Source: Acidimicrobiia bacterium (GTDB lineage Bacteria; Actinomycetota; Acidimicrobiia; IMCC26256; JBMOIJ01). From it: a stretch of 64,000 nt of DNA. The notes under the pieces were generated by a model. That model searched no databases. It saw nothing but the letters and a program-made list of their open reading frames with translations, and had not been told where the DNA came from. Numbering within the stretch: the first letter of the stretch is position 1; each line of letters opens with the position of its first letter. The stretch covers positions 45,591-109,590 of the forward strand of contig JBMOIJ010000004.1 of the NCBI GenBank assembly GCA_049317385.1, given 5' to 3'. Made by a program: the position numbers and the translations under genes. This document shows, piece by piece, positions 30,882 to 43,368 of the stretch.

Positions 30882-32114
30882 TCACTCCCCGCTTGGGGTG
30901 TTCGTCCGGATTCCCGATCGGTGCTGGCGCCAGCCCGCGGTCAGCAGCCCCAGGGCCAGGACGGCGGCCACGCTGCCCGAGATGATCAGCGGGAGCCGCC
31001 CGGTGCCATCCCAGGCCAGGCCGGCCCAGAGCCCGGCCACGAACACGGCGAGGCCGCTGCCGCCCTGGAACACGCCCTGCGCTTCCCCTTGTTGATCGGG
31101 GCCCACGAGCTTCGAGATCCATGCCTTGCCCACACCGTCGGTCAAGGCAGTGAACCCGCCGTAGACCAGGAACAGCACCCACACCCAACCCACACTCGTG
31201 ATCACGCCGAGACCAAAGTATGCGACCGCGAAGCACACGAGCCCGGTTCCCACCACCAGCGGCGGTGACAGTCGGTCGGAGATCGCGCCGGCGGGGTAAC
31301 TGAGCACTGTGTAGGACAAGTTGTAGGTGACGTACACGAGCACGATGCCGGGCAACTCGTAACCAAGTTCCTTTACGCGCAGCAGCAACAACGCGTCGGG
31401 AAAGTTCACGACGCCGAACGCGATTAACACCAGCGCGACCCGCCAGAACCGTTGGGGGAGCGGTGTGTGGTGCGGCGGATCGTTGGTCGCGTGTGGTGCT
31501 GCGTCGCTTTCTTCTGTGCGACGGGTCTCACGCACCGCGAACACGAGCGCAGTGCTCAGCACGGCGGGGATTGCCGCGAACCACAACACCGGTCGGATCT
31601 GCTGGTCCAGGAACTCGTAGGCCGCGAGACCGAGCAACGGTCCCACCACTGCGCCCGCAGTGTCGGCGGCGCGGTGGAAGCCGAACACGCGCCCCCGCGT
31701 GGTGGGGTCGCTGCCGTCGGCCAACAGCGCGTCGCGCGGCGCGCCGCGCACCCCTTTGCCGATGCGGTCGAGCACTCGGCCCGCGAGGACTACTGGCCAC
31801 ACCAACGCGGCCGCCACCACCACCTTGCCGACGGCGGCCAACCCGTACCCGAATGCGATGAACGGCCGCCGGCGGCGGCGATCGGACATGCGGCCCGCAA
31901 TGGGTTTCGACAGTGCCGCGGCGGCGTCGGCCGCGCCTTCGATGATGCCGACAACCGCAACCGGCGCACCGAGCGTGACCGTGAGGAAGATCGGCAGGAT
32001 CGGGTAGAGCAACTCGCTTGCGGCGTCTTGCAGGAAGCTGACCCCCGACAACGCCTTCAGGTTGTGGGTGAGCCACTGCGGGAGCTTCGATGCGCGCGCC
32101 GAAGGTTGCGTCAC
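30882..32114 (-). CDS. MFS transporter (12-TMS)
   Basis: 12 predicted TM segments and the motif GRMSDRRRRR. The GTG 32114 start overlaps the upstream stop (GTGA). Confidence 0.85.
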   Translation of the reverse strand: MTQPSARASKLPQWLTHNLKALSGVSFLQDAASELLYPILPIFLTVTLGAPVAVVGIIEGAADAAAALSKPIAGRMSDRRRRRPFIAFGYGLAAVGKVVVAAALVWPVVLAGRVLDRIGKGVRGAPRDALLADGSDPTTRGRVFGFHRAADTAGAVVGPLLGLAAYEFLDQQIRPVLWFAAIPAVLSTALVFAVRETRRTEESDAAPHATNDPPHHTPLPQRFWRVALVLIAFGVVNFPDALLLLRVKELGYELPGIVLVYVTYNLSYTVLSYPAGAISDRLSPPLVVGTGLVCFAVAYFGLGVITSVGWVWVLFLVYGGFTALTDGVGKAWISKLVGPDQQGEAQGVFQGGSGLAVFVAGLWAGLAWDGTGRLPLIISGSVAAVLALGLLTAGWRQHRSGIRTNTPSGE

Positions 32115-32935
32115 GCCGTGCTGCGGTCGAACAACGCGCGCGCCGTGCCGCCCAGGAATCGCTCCATCGCGTCGTCGTCGAGCGGCAGCTCCTTGGCCTC
32201 GGCCAGAGAGCGGGCTTGTGGGAACCACGGGTCGTCGCTGCCCCACAACACGCGTCCGCGATATGCGTTCGTGTTCATGAACTTCACCAAGTTGGGATCC
32301 ATGTACTTAGGGGCATACGCAGTGCAGCTCACGTAGAGCTGCGGCCACTTGCGCATGTAGTTCATGAGGAGCTCTTCGTAGGGATGGCCCATGTGCGCAA
32401 CCACCACCGTGAGTCGTGGGAAATCGATGAGCACGTCTTCGAGCAGATCGGGATGCTGCACCCGCGAGCGCACCTGGGGCCCCGGGATGCCGGCGTTGAT
32501 GGCCACCGGCAGACCGAGTTCTTCGCACACCGAGTACACGGGGTAGTGCTGCGGGTGGTTGATGGGGACCTGAGTTGCGAGCGGCATGACGCGCACCATG
32601 GCCGCCCGCGAGTGTTGCGCGAATTCGCGGATGCGGACTGCGTTCTTCGTGGGCTTGTGGGGCTGCACCACGCCGATAGCCACCAGGAATCGCCCCGGGT
32701 GTGCGTCGGAAATGGCCAACGCCTGCTCGACTCCGTCGCCGATGAGTCCGGGGGTGAGGATGCCGGTGGCCACGCCGTTCGCATCCATGCGGCGCAGGAC
32801 TTCGTCGACCGCCACGCCACCCGTACCGTCGCTGCCCAGATAATCGGGGATGGACTCGTACCCCTCTTGGCCCAAGAACTGCTCGGCAGATTTCGGGGTG
32901 ACGATGTTGACCCAGATGTCGACGATGTCGGTCAT
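32111..32935 (-). CDS. amidohydrolase family 2 (ACMSD-like) protein
   Basis: 275 aa beginning MTDIVDIWVN, with a metal-dependent hydrolase pattern (VVAHMGHP, WGSDDP). The longer track ORF start was rejected. Confidence 0.85.
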   Translation of the reverse strand: MTDIVDIWVNIVTPKSAEQFLGQEGYESIPDYLGSDGTGGVAVDEVLRRMDANGVATGILTPGLIGDGVEQALAISDAHPGRFLVAIGVVQPHKPTKNAVRIREFAQHSRAAMVRVMPLATQVPINHPQHYPVYSVCEELGLPVAINAGIPGPQVRSRVQHPDLLEDVLIDFPRLTVVVAHMGHPYEELLMNYMRKWPQLYVSCTAYAPKYMDPNLVKFMNTNAYRGRVLWGSDDPWFPQARSLAEAKELPLDDDAMERFLGGTARALFDRSTA

Positions 32936-32974
32936 GGGTCGGGACGGTAACGTCAGCGGTTGCGGAGGACAAGC

Positions 32975-34171
32975 ATGACGATCGTCGACGACCGCTACAC
33001 GATCATCTCGGCCGACTGCCACGCCGGCGCGTCCATCGAGACGTACGGCGAGTACCTCGACCCGGCCTACCGCGAAGCATTCGCGGAATGGCGCGGCGCG
33101 TACGTCAACCCGTTCCGTGACCTGCAGGGCGACTCGCGGACCCGTAACTGGGACGACGACCGTCGTATCGCCGACCTCGAAGCCGATGGGCAAGTGGGCG
33201 AGGTCGCGTTCCCCAATACCGTGCCACCGTTCTTCCCCACGGGCGCGTTGGTGGCGCGTCCACCGACGCGCGAAGACCTCGATGCACGTTGGGCCGGGTT
33301 GCACGCGCACAACCGGTGGTTGGTCGATTGGTGCGCCGGACAATCAGCGCGGCGGGCCGGCATTGCGCAGGTGTTCTTGAACGACCCGCAACGCGCGGTG
33401 CAGGAAGCCGAGTGGGTGAGTGAGCAGGGTCTGCGCGGCGGCATTCTCATCCCGGAACCGCCCGACGACACCGACATCGAACCGCTGTACTCGCCGGTCT
33501 ATGACGATCTGTGGCAGGTCTGCGAGGAACGCAAGATCGTCGTCAACCATCACGGTGGCACGGGGCATCCCGACTACGGCCCGTACCCGGCGGCGCCCAT
33601 GATGTGGGTGGCCGAAACCGCGTGGTACTCGCACCGCGTGTTGTGGCAGCTCCTCATGAGTGGGGTGTTCGAGCGGTTCCCGAAGCTCAAGTTCGTGCTC
33701 ACCGAAACCGGATGCAGTTGGATCCGGCCCACCCTTGCGCAGCTCGACATGTTCCATCACCAGGGCAAACTCACCGGCCGCGCCGGTGAGTTCAAACTCA
33801 ACGCAGATGCGATGCTCGAGCTGACACCCAGCGAGTACTTCCAACGCAACATCTGGGTCGGGGTGAGTTTCCCGAGCCCGTACGAAGCGAAGGCCATGCG
33901 CAAGCTCGGGCTGCACAAGGTGATGTGGGGGAGCGACTACCCGCACTTCGAGGGCACCACCCCGCATTCGCGCGAGTCGTTGCAGCGCTCGTTCCACGAA
34001 TGGACGCCCGAGGAACTCGACCAGGTCTTCTGCGGGAACGTGAGTGAGGTCTACGGCTTCGAACCGGCGGCGTTGGCCGATCGAGTGGCCGAATGTGGCT
34101 TCACGGTCGACGAGCTGAGCCAGCCGCTCGAAACCGTGCCGCACGGGGCGCGGAGTCCCGCGTTCTACTGA
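32975..34171 (+). CDS. amidohydrolase family 2 (ACMSD-like decarboxylase/hydrolase) protein
   Basis: IISADCHAG N-terminal metal site, HHGGTGHP, and WGSDYPHFEG. There is a GGAGGA RBS before ATG 32975. It is divergent from the paralogue, 39 bp away. Confidence 0.85.
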   Translation: MTIVDDRYTIISADCHAGASIETYGEYLDPAYREAFAEWRGAYVNPFRDLQGDSRTRNWDDDRRIADLEADGQVGEVAFPNTVPPFFPTGALVARPPTREDLDARWAGLHAHNRWLVDWCAGQSARRAGIAQVFLNDPQRAVQEAEWVSEQGLRGGILIPEPPDDTDIEPLYSPVYDDLWQVCEERKIVVNHHGGTGHPDYGPYPAAPMMWVAETAWYSHRVLWQLLMSGVFERFPKLKFVLTETGCSWIRPTLAQLDMFHHQGKLTGRAGEFKLNADAMLELTPSEYFQRNIWVGVSFPSPYEAKAMRKLGLHKVMWGSDYPHFEGTTPHSRESLQRSFHEWTPEELDQVFCGNVSEVYGFEPAALADRVAECGFTVDELSQPLETVPHGARSPAFY

Positions 34172-34257
34172 GTTCGCCACATTTCGCTGGATCCCAGCGC
34201 GTCTTCGGTCGATGAAAAAGGTCCTACGATTTGTGGGGGACCCTGTGGAGAGCGGCG

Positions 34258-35403
34258 ATGACGGTGACCATGACCGAACGCCCCGACGAACCGGCACCTC
34301 CCGGTTCCGGCGCGCCTTCGCTCTCGCACCCACTCGTGGTGGTCGCCGCAGCTGCTTCGGGCGCAGCCGGGTTGGTGCACGGTGCCGCGGCGGGAACTCA
34401 CCAGGGCGACACCACCCTCGTTCGGCTGTTTGCGTTCGCGGCGTTGGTGCAGATCGCTTGGGCCGTATGGGCGGTGGCGCGTCCCTCGCGCTCGGTCATG
34501 TTCTGGGGCGCGGCCATCAACGCAGCAATGGTGCTCGCCTGGGCGGCGTCGCGAACGTTCGGCCTGCCGCTCGTCGACGCGCTGAGTGAGGTCGAACCTG
34601 TTGGCACCCAAGACCTGTTGTGCGCGGTGCTCGGCGCGGGCGCGGCCTTGTTTGCAGGTGCAGCCGCGTTGGGGCTCCGACTGCCCCGTTGGTCGTTCAT
34701 GATGCCGGTCGCATTGCTCAGTGTGACGGCGTTGGCCTTTTTCGGCGCGGTGGCGCCCCATCAGCACTCGCACAGTCACGACCATGCGCACAGCGATGCG
34801 GCGGCGGCCAGCGACGGGCACACGCATTCACACGGCTCGGCGATGAGTACTGATCCGATCGTTTCGATCTCCGATCCGCGGCTCACGGCCACGCAGCGCG
34901 CCGCAGCGCAGAAGTTGCTCGACGAATCGCGGGCGGCGTTGCGGAAGTTCCCCGACCAATCGAGCATCGAAGCGGCCGGGTACCGATCGATTGGTGATTC
35001 GGTCACGGGCTTCGAGCACTTCGTGAATCCGCAGTACCTGGTGAACGCCGACGAACTCGACCCGAACCAGATCGAGTCGATCGTGATGCAGGTGAACCCT
35101 GACGGCACGAAGACCACGGCGTCGGCCATGTACATCCTTGCCCGAGGTAAGACGATGGCGGACGTGCCCGAGATCGCCGGGTCGCTCACCACCTTCCACG
35201 ACCATCAGAACCTGTGTTGGGATCCGAGCGGGTTGCGGGTGGTCGGGGTGGTCAATGCGAGCGGCCAGTGCTCCCGGGGGGTCTTCCGGCCGACGGCACC
35301 GATGCTCCACGTGTGGGCCACCGACACGCCGTGTGGGCCGTTCTCGGGGATCGAGGGCCACGGTGGCGACTGCAAGGCACACTCCCACGGCCCGGTGAAC
35401 TGA
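34258..35403 (+). CDS. membrane protein with a His-rich linker and a Cys/His-containing ectodomain (hypothetical)
   Basis: Four or five TM helices, then HQHSHSHDHAHSD...GHTHSHG, then a ~200-aa soluble domain ending GHGGDCKAHSHG. There is a GGAGAG RBS before ATG 34258. Confidence 0.7.
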   Translation: MTVTMTERPDEPAPPGSGAPSLSHPLVVVAAAASGAAGLVHGAAAGTHQGDTTLVRLFAFAALVQIAWAVWAVARPSRSVMFWGAAINAAMVLAWAASRTFGLPLVDALSEVEPVGTQDLLCAVLGAGAALFAGAAALGLRLPRWSFMMPVALLSVTALAFFGAVAPHQHSHSHDHAHSDAAAASDGHTHSHGSAMSTDPIVSISDPRLTATQRAAAQKLLDESRAALRKFPDQSSIEAAGYRSIGDSVTGFEHFVNPQYLVNADELDPNQIESIVMQVNPDGTKTTASAMYILARGKTMADVPEIAGSLTTFHDHQNLCWDPSGLRVVGVVNASGQCSRGVFRPTAPMLHVWATDTPCGPFSGIEGHGGDCKAHSHGPVN

Positions 35404-35431
35404 GCCTCCCGGCCCGGTGAACTGAGCCCCC
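35388..35431. repeat. 22-bp tandem duplication spanning a stop codon
   Basis: cggcccggtgaactgagcctcc followed by cggcccggtgaactgagccccc, 21/22 identical. The first copy contains the TGA stop (35401-35403) of the preceding gene. Confidence 0.85.
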
Positions 35432-35502: not shown

Positions 35503-35517
35503 ACGAAACCGTTTCGT
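35503..35517. promoter_or_regulatory. candidate TetR operator palindrome
   Basis: acgaaac-c-gtttcgt (7-1-7 perfect), flanked by atac/gtat. It lies 32 nt upstream of the MFS-TetR operon start in a locally AT-richer stretch. Confidence 0.4.
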
Positions 35518-35548: not shown

Positions 35549-37210
35549 ATGACCGCCACCGAGCCCGACGCGGCTTGCGGCCCCCTCGCCGCCACTGGCA
35601 TCCCTGAGGGCGTCGACCCCGAGGTCCACCGCCGCCGTTGGACCACCCTCGCGGTGCTCTGTCTCAGCCTCATCATCATCGTGATGGACAACTCCATCTT
35701 GAACGTGGCGATCCCGTCGCTCGTGAAGGAGTTGGGCGCCACCACCAGTCAGCTGCAGTGGATCGTCGACGCGTACGTGTTGGTCTTCGCCGGTTTCTTG
35801 CTCACCGCCGGCACCATCGGCGACCGCTTCGGCCGCAAGGGCGCGTTGAGTTTCGGGCTCGTGATGTTCGCCTGCGGTTCGGTGGCCGCCGCGCTCTCGA
35901 GTTCGGCGAACCAGCTGATCGTGATGCGCGGGTTCATGGGCTTCGGTGCCGCGTTCATCATGCCGGCCACGCTCTCGATTCTCACCAACGTGTTCCGTGA
36001 TCCGAAGGAACGCGCGCAAGCCATTGCGATCTGGGCCGCGTTCGCCGGTGTCGGTGGCGTCATCGGCCCGATCGCTGGTGGCACGTTGTTGGCGCACTTC
36101 TCGTGGAGCTCGGTGTTCTGGATCAACCTTCCGGTCATTGCGATCGCGTTGGTGGTGGGTCGTTTCTTCGTGCCGACTTCGCGTGACGAGCATGCGCCGC
36201 GCATCGACTCTGTGGGCGCCGTGCTCTCGATCGCGGCCCTCATCACCATGCTCTACGCCATCATCGAGGCGCCGGGGCGCGGCTGGACGGCGCCCTTGAC
36301 GTTGGCGTCGTTCGTGGTTGGCAGCATCTTGGTTGCGGCGTTCGTGGCGTGGGAACTGCGGACCGAACACCCCATGCTCGACATCCGGTTCTTCAAGAGC
36401 CGTCGGTTCAGCGGTGGCAACCTCGCCATCACGCTCACGTTCTTCGCGATGTTCGGTTCGCTGTTCCTGCTCACGCAGTTCTTGCAGTTCGTCCTCGGGT
36501 ACTCGCCCCTTGAAGTGGGAATCAAGATGATCCCGATTGCCGTCACGATGTTCATCGTGGCGCCGCTCTCGGCGAAGGTCGTCGAGCGCATCGGCACCAC
36601 CGTGGTGGTGGTCACGGGCCTGGTGCTCGTGGCGGCCGGGCTCTTCGCGATGTCCACCATGTACGTGGGGATGCCGTACCTCGCGATCGTGCCCCGGCTG
36701 GTGTTGCTCGCGGCCGGCATGGGGTTGGTCATGGCGCCGGCGACCGAAGCGGTCATGGGGTCGTTGCCACCCGAGAAGGCCGGCATCGGTTCCGCCGTGA
36801 ACGACACCACGCGGGAAGTTGGTGGCGCACTGGGCGTTGCGGTCGTCGGTTCGTTGGCGGCGAGCTCGTACGTCAACGCCCTCGGACCGCTCCTCGCCAA
36901 GGTGCGCCTCGGCGGCCCCGAGGGGGAGCAGGCCGCGAAGTACATCACCGAAGGGTTGGGTCAGGCCCTGGCGGTGGCACAGCGAGCGGGCGACTTCGGG
37001 GCGGTCATCAAGGCCGATGCCGTGAGTGCGTTCACCGACTCCATGACGTCGGGCATGCGCATCGGCGCGGTGGTCACGTTGGCGGCCGCAGTGTTGGTGG
37101 CGCTGCTCCTGCCGAGCCGCGCGCACGACTACGAGGAGCCGTCGGATTCGATCGAACTCGACCTCGACGACCGGGCCGAAAACGACGAGTCGAGCCGTGC
37201 CGGTCGCTGA
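35549..37210 (+). CDS. MFS transporter, DHA2 (EmrB/QacA, 14-TMS) type
   Basis: MDNSILNVAIPSL motif, GTIGDRFGRK, and about 14 TM segments. The start is ATG 35549 (or 35537). Confidence 0.9.
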   Translation: MTATEPDAACGPLAATGIPEGVDPEVHRRRWTTLAVLCLSLIIIVMDNSILNVAIPSLVKELGATTSQLQWIVDAYVLVFAGFLLTAGTIGDRFGRKGALSFGLVMFACGSVAAALSSSANQLIVMRGFMGFGAAFIMPATLSILTNVFRDPKERAQAIAIWAAFAGVGGVIGPIAGGTLLAHFSWSSVFWINLPVIAIALVVGRFFVPTSRDEHAPRIDSVGAVLSIAALITMLYAIIEAPGRGWTAPLTLASFVVGSILVAAFVAWELRTEHPMLDIRFFKSRRFSGGNLAITLTFFAMFGSLFLLTQFLQFVLGYSPLEVGIKMIPIAVTMFIVAPLSAKVVERIGTTVVVVTGLVLVAAGLFAMSTMYVGMPYLAIVPRLVLLAAGMGLVMAPATEAVMGSLPPEKAGIGSAVNDTTREVGGALGVAVVGSLAASSYVNALGPLLAKVRLGGPEGEQAAKYITEGLGQALAVAQRAGDFGAVIKADAVSAFTDSMTSGMRIGAVVTLAAAVLVALLLPSRAHDYEEPSDSIELDLDDRAENDESSRAGR

Positions 37211-37829
37211 CGGTTCCACTGCGTCCGACGCAACTGCAATGCGCCGACCTGGTCGACCCCGCGATGCGCATGCCGATGAGGCGATTCTCGACGCTGCGCT
37301 CGCCGAGGTCACCGAACACGGGTGGGGCCGCACATGCATCGACTCGGTGGCGGCCCGGGCAGGCGTGAGCAAGGCCACCATCTACCGGCGCTGGCCCTCG
37401 AAGGAACGGTTGGTGTTCGACGCAATGTTGCGCGTCTCCGAACCCATCTTCGAACCGGCCGACACCGGGTCGCTGCGCGGCGACCTCATCGACCAGCTCG
37501 GACGGGTCGCCGAACTCGTGAATCAGCCCCCGGGCTGTGATCTGCTGCCACAGCTGCTGGCCGCGGCGCGGGTCGACCCCGAACTGCGCGAGCTTCATGA
37601 GCGCGCGTCGGCCCATCGGCGCCAGTTGGTGCGCGTGGCGTTCGTCCGCGCCATCGAGCGGGGTGAACTCGACGCCACCGTCGACGTCGACACGCTCATC
37701 GACCTGCTCGCCGGGCCGGTGTTCTTCCGGACGTTGTTCGGGCCGGGGTCTCCCGATCCCGAGTTCGTGCGAGTCACGGTCGATTCCGTGCTGGCGGCAG
37801 TGGGCGCGAGAGTCGTCACCGGCGCGTAG
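37197..37829 (+). CDS. TetR family transcriptional regulator
   Basis: HTH region SVAARAGVSKATIYRRWPSKERLV. It overlaps the MFS 3' end by 14 nt. Confidence 0.9.
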   Translation: MPVADGSTASDATAMRRPGRPRDAHADEAILDAALAEVTEHGWGRTCIDSVAARAGVSKATIYRRWPSKERLVFDAMLRVSEPIFEPADTGSLRGDLIDQLGRVAELVNQPPGCDLLPQLLAAARVDPELRELHERASAHRRQLVRVAFVRAIERGELDATVDVDTLIDLLAGPVFFRTLFGPGSPDPEFVRVTVDSVLAAVGARVVTGA

Positions 37830-37838
37830 GGTCGCGCC

Positions 37839-38924
37839 ATGCGCGCTTCCCTTCTTCGAGCAGCCAAGGCCGAGTCCACCGTCGAAGACGTCGAGCTGAA
37901 TCCGCCGGGTCCGGGCGAGGTGCGCGTGCGCATCGAAGCGACTGGTGTGTGTCACTCCGATCTGTCCATTCAGAACGGCAACATTCCGGGATTCTTCCCC
38001 ACGGTGCTCGGCCACGAAGGCGCGGGCGTCATCAGCGAAGTCGGTGACGGTGTCACGAATGTGGCCGTCGGTGATCACGTGATCATTGCGTGGATCCAGC
38101 CGTGTCGTGAGTGCTGGTTCTGCTTGCACGGCCGCGCGGCAAACTGTGTGAAGTCCACGGCGCGCGCGATCAGTGGTGCGTACGGCGCCTGCAACGGCGA
38201 GGCTGTCTATCCCGGCATGGGAACGGCCACATTCGCAGAGGAAACTGTCGTGCCGGCGCCGATGGCAGTGAAGATCAATCCCGAGTTCGACTTGCGGCTC
38301 GGCGCGCTCATCGGGTGCGGCGTCGCCACCGGCGTGGGGGCTGTGCGCAACGCGGCGCGGGTGCAGTCCGGCGAGAGCACCGTGGTCGTCGGGTGTGGTG
38401 GCGTGGGACTCGCAGCCATTCAGGGCGCACGCCTGGCCGGAGCCGCTCCGCTCGTTGCAATCGACGTGGTTCCCGCGAAACTCGAAATGGCGCGCCAAGC
38501 TGGCGCCACCGATGTCATCGATGCTCGCGACTCCGACGTGGCCAAAGCGGTACGCAAGCTCACCGGTGGGCGTGGCGCCGACCAGGTGCTCGAGGTGGTG
38601 GGGTCGTCGGCCACCATTCGTCAGGCATACGACCTCGCCCGTGTGGGTGGAACCGTCACCGTCGTGGGGGCCGGCCGCTTCGACGATCCGGTGCAGTTCA
38701 ACGCCATGGAACTCATGCTCGGCTCCAAACGGCTGCAGGGCACTGTCTATGGCGACACCGACCCCGCCCGCGACTTTCCCGAGCTGGTCGATCTCAGTCT
38801 GCGGGGCCTCCTCGATCTCGAGATGTTGGTGAGCCGCACTGGCACGCTCGCCGACATCGATGCCGCCTACGAGGCCATGCGCAACGGCGAGGTGGCGCGC
38901 ACCGTGGTGTTGCCGCACGCCTGA
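37839..38924 (+). CDS. zinc-dependent alcohol dehydrogenase, class III / mycothiol-formaldehyde-dehydrogenase-like
   Basis: GVCHSD...GHEGAGVISEVG Zn site, a structural-Zn Cys cluster (CRECWFCLHGRAANC), and GCGGVG NAD motif. It starts 10 nt after the TetR stop. Confidence 0.9.
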   Translation: MRASLLRAAKAESTVEDVELNPPGPGEVRVRIEATGVCHSDLSIQNGNIPGFFPTVLGHEGAGVISEVGDGVTNVAVGDHVIIAWIQPCRECWFCLHGRAANCVKSTARAISGAYGACNGEAVYPGMGTATFAEETVVPAPMAVKINPEFDLRLGALIGCGVATGVGAVRNAARVQSGESTVVVGCGGVGLAAIQGARLAGAAPLVAIDVVPAKLEMARQAGATDVIDARDSDVAKAVRKLTGGRGADQVLEVVGSSATIRQAYDLARVGGTVTVVGAGRFDDPVQFNAMELMLGSKRLQGTVYGDTDPARDFPELVDLSLRGLLDLEMLVSRTGTLADIDAAYEAMRNGEVARTVVLPHA

Positions 38925-38958
38925 CGGGCTCCGCGCACCTCCCGGAACTCGGGCCACG

Positions 38959-39005
38959 GGGAACGAGAGCGTTCCCGAACCCCTCTCCGGGTGACTACGG
39001 TCACC
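38959..39005. promoter_or_regulatory. two small hairpins/palindromes between ADH and P450
   Basis: gggaacg-agag-cgttccc at 38959-38976, and ggtgac-tacg-gtcacc at 38990-39005, 24 nt before the P450 ATG. Whether they act as terminator, attenuator or operator is not resolved. Confidence 0.3.
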
Positions 39006-39028
39006 GGCACCCGCTCGCAGGAGTAGTG

Positions 39029-40222
39029 ATGACCGAACCGACCGACGCCATCGACCCGCTCATGTTGCTCTTCGTCGACCCGGCGGCGGCCGACGACCCC
39101 ACCGAGGCGTACGAGACGCTGCGCACCCAGTGCCCTGTCGCACGCACGCCCGGGATGATGGGCGACGACATGTCGGTGTGGGTGAGCAACTACGAGTATG
39201 CGCTCTGGGCGCTCAAGCACCCCGAGGTGTTCTCGTCCGAAGGCGAGTCCATCAACATCGGTCAGCAGCACGACCTCATCCCGTTGCAGATCGACCCGCC
39301 GTTGCACACCAAGTACCGACGGTTCCTCGCCGAGTGGTTCAACACTCGGGCCATCAACCCGTTGGAACCCGAAGTTCGGCGGCTCGTGAACGAACTCATC
39401 GACGGGTTCGTCGACACGGGCGCGTGCGACTTCCACGAGGACTTCGCCACTCCGCTGCCGTCGGAAGTATTCCTCGCCATGATGGGGTTGCCGCAGAGCG
39501 ACCTTCCCATGTTCCTCAAGTGGCGCGACGACATCATTCGCCCGAAGGTCGACCTGGAAGACGCCGAGGCCGTGCGCGTGCAGACCGGCGCTGAGATCAC
39601 CGCATACTTCGACGCGCAGATCGAGGAACTGCGGGCGCATCCCCGTGAGGGCTTCTGGTCGGCGCTGGTGAACAGCAACGAGTTCGAAGGACGGGCTCTC
39701 ACCCGCGAGGAGCTCCTGGGCATGGCGTTCCTGCTCATCCTGGGGGGCCTCGACACGGTGACCGCCACGCTCGACTGCATGATCGAGTACCTGGCGTTGC
39801 ACCCCGACCATCGGCGCCAACTCATCGAGAACCCGGCCATCACCGCCGACGCGGCCGAAGAGATGCTGCGGGCCCTCACACCGGTGCAGGTGGTGCCGCG
39901 TCGGATCAAGGCCGACGCCGAGCTCGGTGGCATCGAGGTGAAGGCGGGCGACAGCGCCACCATCGTCTTGGGTGCGGCCAACCTCGACCCGGGCATGTTC
40001 CCGAACCCGAACGAAGTCGACTTCAACCGGCCGCGCACCATCAACTTCGCGTTCGGCGGTGGTCCCCACCTGTGTTTGGGCATCAACCTTGCCCGCCTCG
40101 AACTTCGGGTAGCGCTCGAGGAGTGGCACAAGCGCATCCCCGACTACCGGATCGCCGAGGGCGTGACCATCACGCACTCGCCCGGCATCCGCCAGGCCGA
40201 CTCGTTGCCGCTCGTCTGGTAG
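39029..40222 (+). CDS. cytochrome P450
   Basis: Heme loop FAFGGGPHLCLGINLA (FxxGxxxCxG) and ExxR (EEMLR); 397 aa. The 703-aa track ORF is an out-of-gene extension over the ADH gene. Confidence 0.93.
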   Translation: MTEPTDAIDPLMLLFVDPAAADDPTEAYETLRTQCPVARTPGMMGDDMSVWVSNYEYALWALKHPEVFSSEGESINIGQQHDLIPLQIDPPLHTKYRRFLAEWFNTRAINPLEPEVRRLVNELIDGFVDTGACDFHEDFATPLPSEVFLAMMGLPQSDLPMFLKWRDDIIRPKVDLEDAEAVRVQTGAEITAYFDAQIEELRAHPREGFWSALVNSNEFEGRALTREELLGMAFLLILGGLDTVTATLDCMIEYLALHPDHRRQLIENPAITADAAEEMLRALTPVQVVPRRIKADAELGGIEVKAGDSATIVLGAANLDPGMFPNPNEVDFNRPRTINFAFGGGPHLCLGINLARLELRVALEEWHKRIPDYRIAEGVTITHSPGIRQADSLPLVW

Positions 40223-40225
40223 TCG

Positions 40226-41050
40226 GTGGGCGATGATGGGAGCGTGCTGGCGCTCGCGACCATTGTCGACACCGAGGCCTATCCGCTGACCGACGCTGCA
40301 TCGCTGCGGCGCCACGACGTCGTTCTCGCGGCGCGAGCCGACTTGGTGCGCACCGGGGTCGCGGAACTGCCGAGGTTCGTGCACCCTGCTGCGCTGGCGC
40401 GCATGGTCACCGAGTGCGACGAGCTGGCGGCGCGTGCACATCACCAGGACGTCACGGGCACTCCGTATCTGGCCGTACCCGACGAGTCGGTCGCGCTGGG
40501 TCATCCGTTGCGCTACGAATCGCGTTCGGCGCTCACCGCCGTGGCCTACGACGAGTTCCCCGCCGATTCCGAACTCCGCGCGCTCTACGAGTCCGACACG
40601 TTGCTCGAGTTCGTGGCGGCGATCCTCGGCGAGGACCAGTTGTACCGGTACGCCGATCCGCTCGGGACGCTGAATGTGGCCGCCATGAATCAGGGCGACG
40701 AGTTGGGTTGGCACTTCGACCAGACCGACTTCGTGGTCTCGATCGCGCTGCAGTCGAGCGTTGGCGGTGGCGAGTTCGAGACGGTCTCGCAACTGCGGGC
40801 GGCGGGCGACGAGCGCTTCGATGCCGTGCGGGCGGTACTGGACGGTGATCGATCGTCGGTGGTGCAACTCCCCATGACGCCCGGCACGCTGTTGGTGTTC
40901 AAGGGGCGCTACTCGATGCACCGGGTCACGCGGGTCGAGGGCGCGCGCCCGAGGTACGTCGCGCTGTTGGCCTATGACACGAAACCCGGCACTGATTCGA
41001 GTGAACTGTTGAAGTTGGTTCGCTACGGGCGACTGCCGGAGGCTCGATGA
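40226..41050 (+). CDS. putative Fe(II)/2-oxoglutarate-dependent oxygenase
   Basis: HxD facial-triad candidate GWHFDQTD, distal His YSMHRV, and Arg a few residues later. It starts 3 nt after the P450 stop. The family call is by motif only. Confidence 0.68.
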   Translation: MGDDGSVLALATIVDTEAYPLTDAASLRRHDVVLAARADLVRTGVAELPRFVHPAALARMVTECDELAARAHHQDVTGTPYLAVPDESVALGHPLRYESRSALTAVAYDEFPADSELRALYESDTLLEFVAAILGEDQLYRYADPLGTLNVAAMNQGDELGWHFDQTDFVVSIALQSSVGGGEFETVSQLRAAGDERFDAVRAVLDGDRSSVVQLPMTPGTLLVFKGRYSMHRVTRVEGARPRYVALLAYDTKPGTDSSELLKLVRYGRLPEAR

Positions 41051-41547
41051 TCCAGATCGGTGAAGGGTTCAGGGGCGCCGGCGCCGAAGCCGCGCACGTG
41101 AACATCGTCCTGGGCGATCGCAACGGCCCCATGGCCAGCGCGTGGGCCACGGCGTTGGCGTCGCCCACGGCGGGTCACGCATCGTTCACCGTCGTGTTGC
41201 GGCCGGGCCTGGCGGTGCGGCCGTACACGGTGTTCGTGAACAAGGCCAGCATCGAGAGCGACGACCACGCGCGGCTCACGTGGGGTGCGGCCCAAGCCGG
41301 GGTGGCGTCGGGACTGACCGACGCGCTGGCCGACGAAATCATCGACGCGCGCCACGCCGATCACTCGTTGTGCATCGCTGCCGTATGGGTCGACCCACAG
41401 GCCGTCGACGAAGAGCTCGTGTACTCGAACAACCGGTGGGCCACACGCGAGGCCGTGCGGGTGGCCATGAAGGGCGGGCCTGCGCTGCCCGATCTCTTGG
41501 CGTTGCGCGACAAGCCGTCGAACCCGTTCTTCCGCCCCGAGCACTGA
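41047..41547 (+). CDS. fae: formaldehyde-activating enzyme (Fae) family protein
   Basis: 166 aa, collinear by eye with methylotroph Fae: IGEGFRGAGAEAAHVNIVLGDRNGP, GHASF.VVL.P, TVFVNK, AQAGVA...DALADEII. It has an ATGA overlap with the upstream gene. Confidence 0.82.
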   Translation: MIQIGEGFRGAGAEAAHVNIVLGDRNGPMASAWATALASPTAGHASFTVVLRPGLAVRPYTVFVNKASIESDDHARLTWGAAQAGVASGLTDALADEIIDARHADHSLCIAAVWVDPQAVDEELVYSNNRWATREAVRVAMKGGPALPDLLALRDKPSNPFFRPEH

Positions 41548-41619: not shown

Positions 41620-42033
41620 GTGCACGATCCCATTGCCCATCCCCACGCGCTCGAGACGTTCGACGACGCGGTCGAGCTCGCGTGCTGTCTCGCCGACGGC
41701 ATGGAGCCGCCGGCGCCGGCGTGCGTCGTGGTGCTCGACGACCGGCGACGCCCCACCGGCTCGGTATTGGTCGTCGACTGCGACGACGCGCTCGTTCCGC
41801 TGCTCGAACTCGCCGCCACGGTGGTCGGTCCGGTTGCGCCGCTCACGTTCCTCGTGGTCTCGATGCACGACGGCGGTTCGGCCTGCGATCCCGATGATGT
41901 CTTCGAGTGGGAAGAAGCGCACGGTGCCGTGGCCGCAGCGGGAGCCGAGCTGCTCGACTGGCTGGTGGTCACCGAGCGTTCGGTGTTCTCCAAGGCGCGC
42001 CACGCACCCACGCCGGGGCTGGTGCGTTGGTGA
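41620..42033 (+). CDS. hypothetical protein (137 aa)
   Basis: GGAGG RBS 6 nt before GTG 41620 and coding-like composition. It may be a degenerate RadC/JAB-like fold (weak). Confidence 0.6.
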   Translation: MHDPIAHPHALETFDDAVELACCLADGMEPPAPACVVVLDDRRRPTGSVLVVDCDDALVPLLELAATVVGPVAPLTFLVVSMHDGGSACDPDDVFEWEEAHGAVAAAGAELLDWLVVTERSVFSKARHAPTPGLVRW

Positions 42034-43368
42034 TCAGTGGCCCTGCACCAACGGCAGGATCACCGGTGCCAGTTGGAACGATGGGTCCAGCTTCTGGGCC
42101 ACGCCCTCACACATCATCACGGTCTTGAACAACAGGGCCAGCTCACGGGGCATGCGCAGATGGTTGCGCCGCACCACTTCCATCAGGTCGTCGAGCACCT
42201 CACTGAACTCGATGGTGCCCAAGGCCGCGTCGCGGTACTTCTGCAAGAAGTCATCCAGGTCACGCACCATCGCGGCATGGTCAGCGGCGCTCGTGGCCAC
42301 GCCCAGGTCGCCCAGTGCGTCGGCCAGCAGCGTCGCGTCGTGGGTGGCCACTGCCATCAGCACCTTGCCCATCCCGAGGCGCAGTTCGGGCGGCACCGTG
42401 CCCACCATGCCGTAGTCCAACAACGCCAACGTGCCGTCCGACTCCACCAGCACGTTCCCAGGGTGCGGGTCGGCGTGGAAGAACCCGGTGCGGAACACCA
42501 TGCCCAGGAACAGCAGCGCGAAGTCGCGGGCCACCGCGGGTCGGTCGATGCCGGCGGCGTCGAGCGCATCGACGTCGGTGATCTTGATCCCGAAGCAGCG
42601 CTCCATCGTCAACACGCCGTCACCGCACGCGGCCCAGTGGATCACGGGCACGTGCACGCGTGGCTGGTCGCGGAGTTCTTCACGAATGCGGTCGCAGTTC
42701 TGCCCCTCGCGTGCGTAGTCCAGTTCGTTCCGCAGCGTCACGCTGAACTCGGCGGCCAACGCTTCGGGGTCGTAGCGGTCGGCCAGTTCCCAGTTGCGCG
42801 CAGCCAGGGCGGCGCCACGCGCGATGAGCGCCAGATCCTCTTCGACGCGAGCCATGACTCCGGGGCGACGAATCTTCACGGCTACGGGCGACCCGTCGGG
42901 CAGGGTTGCGCCGTGCACCTGTCCGATCGACGCCGCGGCGATCGGATGGCGTTCGAACGATGCGAACACCTCGCGTGGGTCGTGTCCCAGCCCGCGGTGC
43001 AACGCGGTGTCGATGGCGGCGAACGGCACCGTGGGCGCGCAGTCCTGGAGTCGTGCGAGTTCGGTCTCGAATTCAGGTGGCACCAGGTCGGGGCGGGTCG
43101 AGAGGATCTGCCCCAACTTCATGAAGGTGGGACCCAGCTCCTCGCACGCGGCGCGGACGTGCGCCGGCGCAACGTCGGCGTGCCGATGGCGGCCGCGGCC
43201 GCCGAGCCCGGACACGTCGAGTACCACGAACAGCCCGTGTTTGGTGAGGACGGCCGCAATCTCGGCGGCACGGGCAACGGTGCTCAATGCATGCTCAGGT
43301 GCTGATCCGACGGGCCAGGGCGTTGATGCGAACGTAGTCGAGGACGTGGTCAGGAATCGCGCGCACAA
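42034..43368 (-). CDS. ABC1/UbiB family atypical kinase
   Basis: ELGPTFMKLGQILSTRPDLVP, AAASIGQVHGA and HADPHPGN motifs. The start may instead be TTG 43287, just after the upstream stop. Confidence 0.88.
   Translation of the reverse strand: MCARFLTTSSTTFASTPWPVGSAPEHALSTVARAAEIAAVLTKHGLFVVLDVSGLGGRGRHRHADVAPAHVRAACEELGPTFMKLGQILSTRPDLVPPEFETELARLQDCAPTVPFAAIDTALHRGLGHDPREVFASFERHPIAAASIGQVHGATLPDGSPVAVKIRRPGVMARVEEDLALIARGAALAARNWELADRYDPEALAAEFSVTLRNELDYAREGQNCDRIREELRDQPRVHVPVIHWAACGDGVLTMERCFGIKITDVDALDAAGIDRPAVARDFALLFLGMVFRTGFFHADPHPGNVLVESDGTLALLDYGMVGTVPPELRLGMGKVLMAVATHDATLLADALGDLGVATSAADHAAMVRDLDDFLQKYRDAALGTIEFSEVLDDLMEVVRRNHLRMPRELALLFKTVMMCEGVAQKLDPSFQLAPVILPLVQGH

Follow-up and report, generated by a model that had tools for sequence, protein, structure and literature searches.

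Conserved coupling of an Fe(II)/2-oxoglutarate oxygenase gene with a Fae homologue in a six-gene stretch of a freshwater Acidimicrobiia bacterium

Introduction

Do six tightly spaced genes of an Acidimicrobiia bacterium constitute one pathway, or do several independent units adjoin one another? The question is raised by positions 35549-41547 of a 64,000-nt stretch of DNA (hereafter the window; G+C 65-70%), in which six co-directional open reading frames (ORFs) were assigned by Pfam and NCBIfam domains to an MFS transporter, a TetR-family regulator, a zinc-dependent alcohol dehydrogenase (Zn-ADH), a cytochrome P450 (P450), an Fe(II)- and 2-oxoglutarate (2OG)-dependent oxygenase and a homologue of the formaldehyde-activating enzyme (Fae). 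An earlier reading of the same DNA, referred to here as the original prediction, treated all six as one integrated module for oxidative demethylation with its own formaldehyde handling. We find that the stretch very probably consists of three modules, each conserved independently, which have come to adjoin one another specifically in this lineage; the 2OG-Fae gene pair is the true unit.

The six genes, and the gap that separates the first three from the last three, are listed below; the coordinates, overlaps and gaps of the original prediction all proved correct when the sequence was read directly.

35549-37210, plus strand: MFS transporter gene; alternative in-frame starts at TTG 35519 and ATG 35537; GGGAG 5 nt before ATG 35549
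37197-37829, plus strand: TetR-family regulator gene; 14-nt overlap with the MFS gene
37839-38924, plus strand: Zn-ADH gene; begins 10 nt past the final base of the TetR gene
38925-39028: intergenic gap of 104 nt with two short hairpins
39029-40222, plus strand: P450 gene; GGAG 5 nt upstream of the start; 3-nt gap to the 2OG oxygenase gene
40226-41050, plus strand: 2OG oxygenase gene; start codon GTG, alternative in-frame GTG at 40244
41047-41547, plus strand: Fae homologue gene; ATGA overlap with the stop of the 2OG oxygenase gene; GGAGG 5 nt upstream

Results

The 2OG oxygenase and Fae homologue genes form a conserved pair

Gene order was compared in two sets of loci. The genome set comprised 80 loci, one per GTDB species, which were selected by a relative of the 2OG protein and searched with all six window proteins. 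For the reverse set, the Fae homologue was used to select 80 loci from metagenomes, 63 of which contained enough upstream sequence. A Fae gene lay directly adjacent in 44 of the 80 genome loci, and the pair was present in 40 of the 48 decidable Actinomycetota loci as well as in Myxococcota. Conversely, the 2OG gene stood immediately upstream in 36 of the 63 decidable Fae-selected loci. Both sets together yielded 82 loci with the pair besides the window. A stop/start overlap of 1-20 nt was possible in 58 of the 79 co-directional pairs, 43 of them with the same 4-nt overlap as in the window, and a further 14 of the 79 had gaps of 0-30 nt. A maximum-likelihood tree built from 108 2OG proteins accommodated adjacency to Fae with only 6 changes, compared with a mean of 28 when the character was shuffled, and this adjacency spanned both Acidimicrobiia and Myxococcota.

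We found no shared flanking genes around the pair: the 138 neighbouring proteins fell into 111 Pfam families, none of which contributed more than five proteins. Because the two genes are conserved together and overlap while their neighbours are unrelated between lineages, the pair constitutes an autonomous, ancient and translationally coupled two-gene module. It is robust, widespread and uncharacterized; a full-text literature search revealed no report that links Fae to 2OG oxygenases, places Fae or tetrahydromethanopterin (H4MPT) in Acidimicrobiia, or describes gene clusters with Fae, and Actinobacteria are not mentioned by Chistoserdova (2016).

Other pair-bearing loci lack the six-gene order

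A very different picture was obtained for the set of six. The order seen in the window occurred in none of the 82 other pair-bearing loci, and an adjacent P450 gene occurred in one (metagenome contig L105). Neither the window ADH nor its TetR was found in any of the 82, and the only MFS was a distant one (28% identical), again in L105. Within the 80 genome loci, no counterpart of the window MFS, TetR or ADH was detected, and P450 homologues were found in three, all distant (28-32% identity) and 2-8 kb away. The original prediction had proposed this co-occurrence check and had named a lack of co-conservation as the result that would count against it; this is what was found for the six genes as one integrated module. 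Its idea of an oxygenase coupled to formaldehyde handling survives for the conserved 2OG-Fae pair; the integrated six-gene module is for the most part unsupported.

The exception, L105:479-6431, has a divergent DHA2-like MFS gene followed by TetR, HlyD (MFP), P450, 2OG oxygenase and Fae genes, with successive gaps of 2, 10, 13 and 8 nt within the operon. Its P450 is only 31% identical to that of the window, the C-terminal domain of its TetR differs, and its 2OG-Fae pair belongs to a Myxococcota-type clade on the 2OG tree, i.e., to an unrelated lineage. Components of the same types have come together independently in L105. As one of 82 pair-bearing loci, this contig is suggestive, but does not show a general association. 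The proposed association of P450 with 2OG oxygenase and Fae gains one convergent operon, although a P450 gene adjoins the pair in only this one of the 82.

The oxygenase resembles amino acid hydroxylases and halogenases of the BesD/HalD type

The 2OG protein matched the Pfam family HalD (PF23169) with a score of 47.8, above the gathering score of 26. An AlphaFold model, calculated with 37 family members, had a pLDDT of 95, and the best PDB matches of this model in Foldseek were HalB, HalD, HalA, BesD and the lysine hydroxylase 7JSD (TM 0.62-0.68, 16-18% identity). The family is large, comprising 1,657 clusters at 50% identity (E < 1e-3).

The Fe ligands H163-x-D165...H232 and the 2OG-binding R243 were invariant across the 37 members. 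R95, a putative substrate-carboxylate-binding residue, was nearly so. In a profile alignment, the WHWG of HalB fell on WHFD, and HalB P82-R83 on P94-R95. HalB Arg83 binds the alpha-carboxylate of the substrate (PMC10041140). Because WHFD aligns with the WHWG of HalB, the triad is of the hydroxylase type, and we predict the protein to be a hydroxylase that depends on Fe(II) and 2OG and adopts the BesD/HalD fold. Since R95 aligns with the carboxylate-binding Arg83, the substrate is best read as a small, carboxylate-bearing, amino-acid-like molecule, the evidence from R95 being positional only.

A halogenase, as the match to HalD might suggest, was considered and rejected: the halogenase Fe site HxG/A...H does not occur, the triad being of the HxD type with H163-F-D165 invariant in the 37 members.

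In 2OG clades that do not carry Fae, the gene directly downstream, often overlapping, was Lyase_1 (fumarase/aspartase superfamily) or SDR. Lyase_1 was found in deltaproteobacterial, Binatia and Myxococcota bins, and SDR in one Acidimicrobiia clade (L027, L029, L035, L044 and L049, among others; L013 and L021).

The Fae homologue retains the Fae fold and has clade-specific residues

Fae is textbook biochemistry of methylotrophs and methanogens, where it is tied to H4MPT. The window homologue scored 157.2 against 27 for PF08714, and 137.1 for TIGR03126, an NCBIfam equivalog-domain model with a cut-off of 118.05. It is collinear with Methylorubrum extorquens Fae over the full length at 31% identity. 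Its AlphaFold model (pLDDT 94.8) superimposed on 1Y60 in Foldseek with a TM of 0.93 and a root-mean-square deviation (rmsd) of 1.2 A, and no other fold was matched with E < 0.05.

H17 and Q83, which correspond to His22 and Gln88 of the M. extorquens enzyme, were invariant in our alignments. A role in acid catalysis has reportedly been proposed for His22, and Gln88 is said to flip its side chain on pterin binding. Other positions are peculiar to the clade: N19, H44, H74, W79 and W114 are invariant where M. extorquens Fae has Asp (Asp24), Phe, Gln, Phe and Phe, respectively, and A84 is nearly invariant where that enzyme has His (His89). The clade thus has three invariant histidines, H17, H44 and H74. 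By sequence, the homologue belongs to a distinct clade, mainly of Acidimicrobiia and also found in Myxococcota; some 1,800 clusters at 90% identity are related to it.

Members of this clade that are not paired with a 2OG gene were found in two recurrent contexts. One has the order NDMA-ADH-like Zn-ADH, Fae, MR_MLE (enolase superfamily) and Amidohydro_2; the other has an aromatic-amino-acid-lyase-like gene, Fae, MR_MLE and an HIBADH-like gene, together with peptide ABC transporter genes (L107, L121, L124, L139, L147, L149; L119, L122, L146, L153, L156). The Zn-ADHs that adjoin Fae in these places were closest to the NDMA-ADH subfamily, although below its cut-off, and failed the formaldehyde dehydrogenase cut-offs. 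A Fae that forms thiol adducts beside MscR-type ADHs was also considered, and was rejected because the neighbouring ADHs are NDMA-ADH-like. We count the Zn-ADH upstream of Fae as an aldehyde theme, in favor of aldehyde capture.

The MFS, TetR and Zn-ADH genes form a conserved triad

The MFS protein matched Pfam MFS_1 (E = 2.9e-54) and passed the cut-off of the DHA2 efflux subfamily (TIGR00711, 293.1 > 230.2). It is accordingly classed, from its sequence, as a DHA2-family (EmrB/QacA-type) drug/H+ exporter rather than an uptake system, and membership of an exporter family would fit detoxification better than uptake of a substrate. The regulator contains TetR_N and TetR_C_11 domains. The palindrome that the original prediction had put forward for TetR binding was present on direct reading:

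35503-35517: perfect 7-1-7 palindrome ACGAAACcGTTTCGT; position 32 nt before the start of the MFS gene

This was the sole perfect match to ACGAAACcGTTTCGT in the window, and it is a candidate TetR operator.

The ADH has ADH_N and ADH_zinc_N domains. It had been placed in the class III/thiol-dependent formaldehyde dehydrogenase lineage. A broad class-III-like Zn-ADH clade stands, but the protein failed both curated formaldehyde dehydrogenase cut-offs, i.e., those of the mycothiol-dependent enzyme (TIGR03451, 312.5 < 512.9) and of the class III, glutathione-dependent enzyme (TIGR02818, 267.9 < 543.95). It also fell short of the NDMA-ADH subfamily (TIGR03989, 304.8 < 440). Identification as MscR or as a class III formaldehyde dehydrogenase is ruled out by these cut-offs.

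The closest ADH homologue (75% identity) was found on three contigs (L172-L174) in the order MFS-TetR-ADH, where the MFS and TetR proteins were 69-72% and 71-72% identical to those of the window and the genes had the same overlapping arrangement. Because order and overlaps recur on three contigs, MFS-TetR-ADH is a genuine conserved triad. On these contigs it was followed by a methyltransferase gene and a methylmalonyl-CoA-mutase-like gene, with no P450, 2OG or Fae gene. In this first module, a DHA2 efflux pump is probably autoregulated through TetR and its gene transcribed together with that of the Zn-ADH, and the ADH and the pump would lie outside any conserved formaldehyde system.

The P450 occurs in several other contexts

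The P450 was identified by Pfam p450 (PF00067, 83.7 bits > 22.8) and by its signature motifs, a heme loop FGGGPHLCLG and an I-helix GGLDTV. Its best solved relatives were CYP101D5/P450cam, CYP125, CYP142 and CYP143, and its sequence places it as a class-I type that appears closest to CYP101/CYP125. A simple motif scan of the window revealed no Fe-S ferredoxin Cys motif, in agreement with the original prediction that no redox partner for the P450 is encoded here. The best NCBIfam match was to a cyclodipeptide-synthase-associated P450; this candidate was set aside given a score of 141.6 against a cut-off of 500 and no cyclodipeptide synthase gene nearby.

Orthologues with 72-76% identity were numerous in Acidimicrobiia, in other contexts. 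On three long contigs that carry them, neither a 2OG nor a Fae gene was found. In two of these, the P450 gene stood beside ChsH2-type OB-fold and thiolase-like genes, one of them with MFS (58%) and TetR genes approximately 3 kb away, and in the third it lay between Amidohydro_2 genes. More distant homologues behaved differently: on three further contigs, a P450 (56-57%) was followed by an ADH (57-60%) with a 4-nt overlap. These belong to operons of the order TetR-Amidohydro_2-(Amidohydro_3)-P450-ZnADH with 4-nt gene overlaps (L170:3244-9086 and L171:1853-6010; the third contig has the same order). Because the homologues overlap in such P450-ADH operons, the window P450 and ADH may be functionally linked across the 104-nt gap; Amidohydro_2 genes also lie just upstream of the six-gene stretch in the window. 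The division of the stretch into two tight units, as originally proposed, is thus supported by the recurrence of MFS-TetR-ADH as a unit, whereas its split at the gap contrasts with the conserved adjacency of P450 and ADH elsewhere.

Given the 3-nt gap, the P450 gene is likely to be co-transcribed with the 2OG-Fae pair in this genome. From spacing alone, two transcription units are suggested, 35549-38924 and 39029-41547, and Shine-Dalgarno-like motifs precede the MFS, P450 and Fae starts. The two small hairpins reported in the 104-nt gap are present; as a structured element they were rejected, the fold being no better than that of shuffled sequence (z = -0.31). The gap contains no T-tract terminator and no terminator-like or promoter-like consensus site; a promoter or a regulatory site that serves the P450 unit may lie within it. 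As a second module, the class-I P450, 104 nt from the first, would be an accessory that this lineage and one other have each recruited independently.

Assembly support and neighboring genes

The locus was covered by DNA contigs of two independent freshwater or lake metagenome studies. Single contigs of run X1 crossed the junctions ADH/P450 and P450/2OG/Fae, which excludes an assembly chimera as the source of the arrangement. The closest relatives of the P450, 2OG protein and Fae homologue were all proteins of Acidimicrobiia metagenome-assembled genomes, which, together with the freshwater and lake coverage, identifies the host as a freshwater Acidimicrobiia bacterium. In run X2, from a lake metagenome, one contig joined position 38597 to 39384, omitting 786 nt and with 16 other letters between. 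This junction skips the 3' end of the ADH gene, the gap and the 5' end of the P450 gene, its shorter flank is only 21 nt, and it may derive from a related strain or organism rather than from a real deletion variant.

Two Amidohydro_2 (ACMSD-type) genes lie just upstream of the six-gene stretch, at 32111-34171. The minus-strand ORF overlaps the start of the plus-strand one, and where exactly they begin is uncertain. Beside them, on the minus strand, lies a second MFS gene (30882-32246). A gene for a 390-aa membrane protein with no Pfam match occupies 34231-35403, and a 22-bp direct tandem duplication (cccggtgaactgagcc...) at 35388-35431 spans its stop codon.

Downstream of Fae, a 137-aa ORF with no Pfam match (41620-42033) was also present on the same-population contig L081; no homologue followed Fae in L085. 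Next comes an ABC1/UbiB-type kinase gene (42034-43368). Such a kinase gene also lies 3-4 kb downstream of the pair in several Acidimicrobiales genomes (L009, L011, L014). Therefore, the 2OG-Fae pair may occupy an ancestral chromosomal position, and the P450/ADH/TetR/MFS block upstream of it may be lineage-specific.

Discussion

The six-gene system is itself ordinary: an efflux/TetR/ADH triad, a P450 common in Acidimicrobiia and a conserved pair. What calls for a mechanism is the pair, which, as the third module, would be the only deeply conserved functional unit here, with translation of an Fe(II)/2OG hydroxylase coupled to that of a Fae-fold enzyme. We propose that the oxygenase binds a small carboxylate-bearing, amino-acid-like substrate via R95 and hydroxylates a carbon next to nitrogen, e.g., that of an N-methyl group. 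The resulting carbinolamine would collapse to release an aldehyde, most simply formaldehyde. The Fae homologue, which retains both the acid-catalyst His of M. extorquens Fae and the Gln that contacts the pterin there, would then condense this aldehyde with a reduced-pterin carrier (H4MPT, should the organism produce it, or else one of the folate type), and the reactive product would so be trapped at its source. Judged from sequence and models, such capture of an aldehyde or formaldehyde by the pair is plausible, if less likely than not. Three modules with this mechanism for the pair make up the best explanation overall, to which we give somewhat less than an even chance. It is doubtful, at present, that the pair is a widespread, autonomous Fe/2OG N-demethylase with a Fae-fold trap that relies not on H4MPT as its carrier but on, e.g., tetrahydrofolate or a different amine or thiol, in bacteria lacking an H4MPT one-carbon (C1) pathway.

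Several observations weigh against aldehyde capture. To our knowledge, H4MPT is not known from Acidimicrobiia, and no H4MPT-pathway family recurred among the 138 flanking proteins or was seen in the annotated contexts examined. The BesD-family enzymes that we know of hydroxylate or halogenate side-chain carbons, and none is a known demethylase. The invariant polar residues that the Fae clade has of its own may point to a changed substrate, and the Lyase_1 and SDR partners of the Fae-less clades fit action on the hydroxylated product rather than on formaldehyde. Much of this would be accommodated if the Fae-fold protein had been neofunctionalized and acted on the hydroxylated product of the oxygenase without a pterin carrier, e.g., by dehydrating or cyclizing a carbinolamine or hemiaminal of an amino-acid-like molecule. 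The two enzymes would then modify or catabolize their substrate in two steps. The invariants N19, H44, H74, W79 and W114, which M. extorquens Fae does not have, speak for it, as do the lack of H4MPT genes near any member examined, the Lyase_1 or SDR partners, which are product-processing enzymes, in the Fae-less clades, and the MR_MLE, aromatic-amino-acid-lyase-like, HIBADH-like and peptide ABC neighbors, which suggest amino-acid-type metabolism. Yet the protein passes the curated Fae equivalog-domain cut-off, retains the His and Gln to which roles in catalysis and in contact with the pterin are ascribed, and has a backbone nearly identical to that of Fae (rmsd 1.2 A), and a non-pterin Fae-fold enzyme is without known precedent; we regard neofunctionalization as rather unlikely.

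For the stretch as a whole, the original prediction would have TetR sense a substrate, the P450 and 2OG oxygenase demethylate it, the ADH oxidize a thiol-formaldehyde adduct and Fae capture formaldehyde, all within one substrate-inducible system. Co-directional and tightly spaced genes, probable co-transcription across the 3-nt P450-2OG gap and the convergent L105 operon with its divergent DHA2 MFS are in keeping with this. Nevertheless, it appears improbable, since the order is missing from all 82 other pair-bearing loci, 81 of which also have no adjacent P450, and since the ADH fails both formaldehyde dehydrogenase equivalog cut-offs and has its closest relatives in triads with no P450, 2OG or Fae gene. 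In addition, the MFS is of an exporter family, and two metatranscriptomes from the source study gave no RNA contigs on the locus. A possibility to be taken more seriously, if still well below even, is that MFS-TetR-ADH-P450 forms a block for the detoxification and catabolism of xenobiotics or lipids, where hydroxylation by the P450 would be followed by oxidation by the ADH and then by efflux. This block would abut an unrelated housekeeping 2OG-Fae pair, with read-through as the sole link. The overlapping P450-ADH homologues in the TetR-Amidohydro_2-P450-ADH operons of three contigs, the Amidohydro_2 genes just upstream in the window and the P450 orthologues beside ChsH2-OB and thiolase-like genes all agree with it, as does the ABC1 kinase that stays downstream of the pair in the window and in L009, L011 and L014 while the upstream side differs. 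Conversely, the 72-76% P450 orthologues are not beside an ADH, and the 3-nt P450-2OG spacing together with L105 hints at more than accidental adjacency.

Whichever chemistry the pair performs, it links a distinct Fae clade, abundant in Acidimicrobiia (common freshwater and soil actinobacteria) and Myxococcota and without C1-pathway neighbors, to an uncharacterized branch of the BesD/HalD amino acid oxygenase fold. Identification of the substrate and the carrier would assign a function to more than 1,600 2OG-related and about 1,800 Fae-related clusters, and would show whether Fae-fold enzymes work without H4MPT. If aldehyde capture on a carrier other than H4MPT proved true, the Fae fold would have a new cofactor specificity and a physiological role outside methylotrophy. 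Knowing the substrate and the carrier might also uncover, in abundant environmental bacteria, a new route for demethylating nitrogen compounds and disposing of the formaldehyde. For annotation, the locus warns that tight co-directional clusters are not to be taken as pathways, and that class-III-like Zn-ADHs are not to be called formaldehyde dehydrogenases.

Comparison with known systems places each module near a characterized counterpart. The first shares with EmrB/QacA-type DHA2 pumps under TetR control a MFS that passes TIGR00711, an overlapping TetR gene and an upstream perfect palindrome, but has a Zn-ADH as a conserved third gene. MscR, glutathione-dependent class III enzymes and the NDMA-ADH subfamily are the best NCBIfam matches of that ADH, yet it lies far below all three cut-offs and is a member of none. 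The oxygenase has in common with BesD, HalA, HalB, HalD and the lysine hydroxylase (6NIE, 7U6H-J, 7JSD) the fold, the PF23169 match, the two-His Fe site, the 2OG Arg and the position of R95; it differs in its low identity (16-18%) and in having HxD instead of HxG/A, and none of the characterized members is known to be paired with a Fae homologue. Similarly, the Fae homologue and M. extorquens Fae (1Y5Y/1Y60) are alike in fold, collinearity, profile cut-offs passed and the invariant equivalents of His22 and Gln88. They are only 31% identical, however, and the window clade has Asn for Asp24, Ala for His89 and new invariant His44, His74, Trp79 and Trp114. Its genes are not beside mch, mtd or fhc, being coupled instead to a 2OG gene, or to a Zn-ADH or enolase-superfamily gene.

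The nearest parallel to the logic proposed for the pair is offered by dimethylglycine oxidase, sarcosine oxidase and the trimethylamine N-oxide demethylase Tdm, in which formaldehyde is trapped on a folate carrier by GcvT-like folate domains. In these enzymes, as in our proposal, oxidative N-demethylation is coupled to a C1-carrier sink for formaldehyde. Theirs is a flavin or other chemistry with a fused GcvT-type tetrahydrofolate domain, whereas the window pair would use an Fe/2OG oxidant and a separate Fae-fold sink. Should this hypothesis hold, the 2OG-Fae pair would represent a new variant of the folate-trapping demethylase logic.

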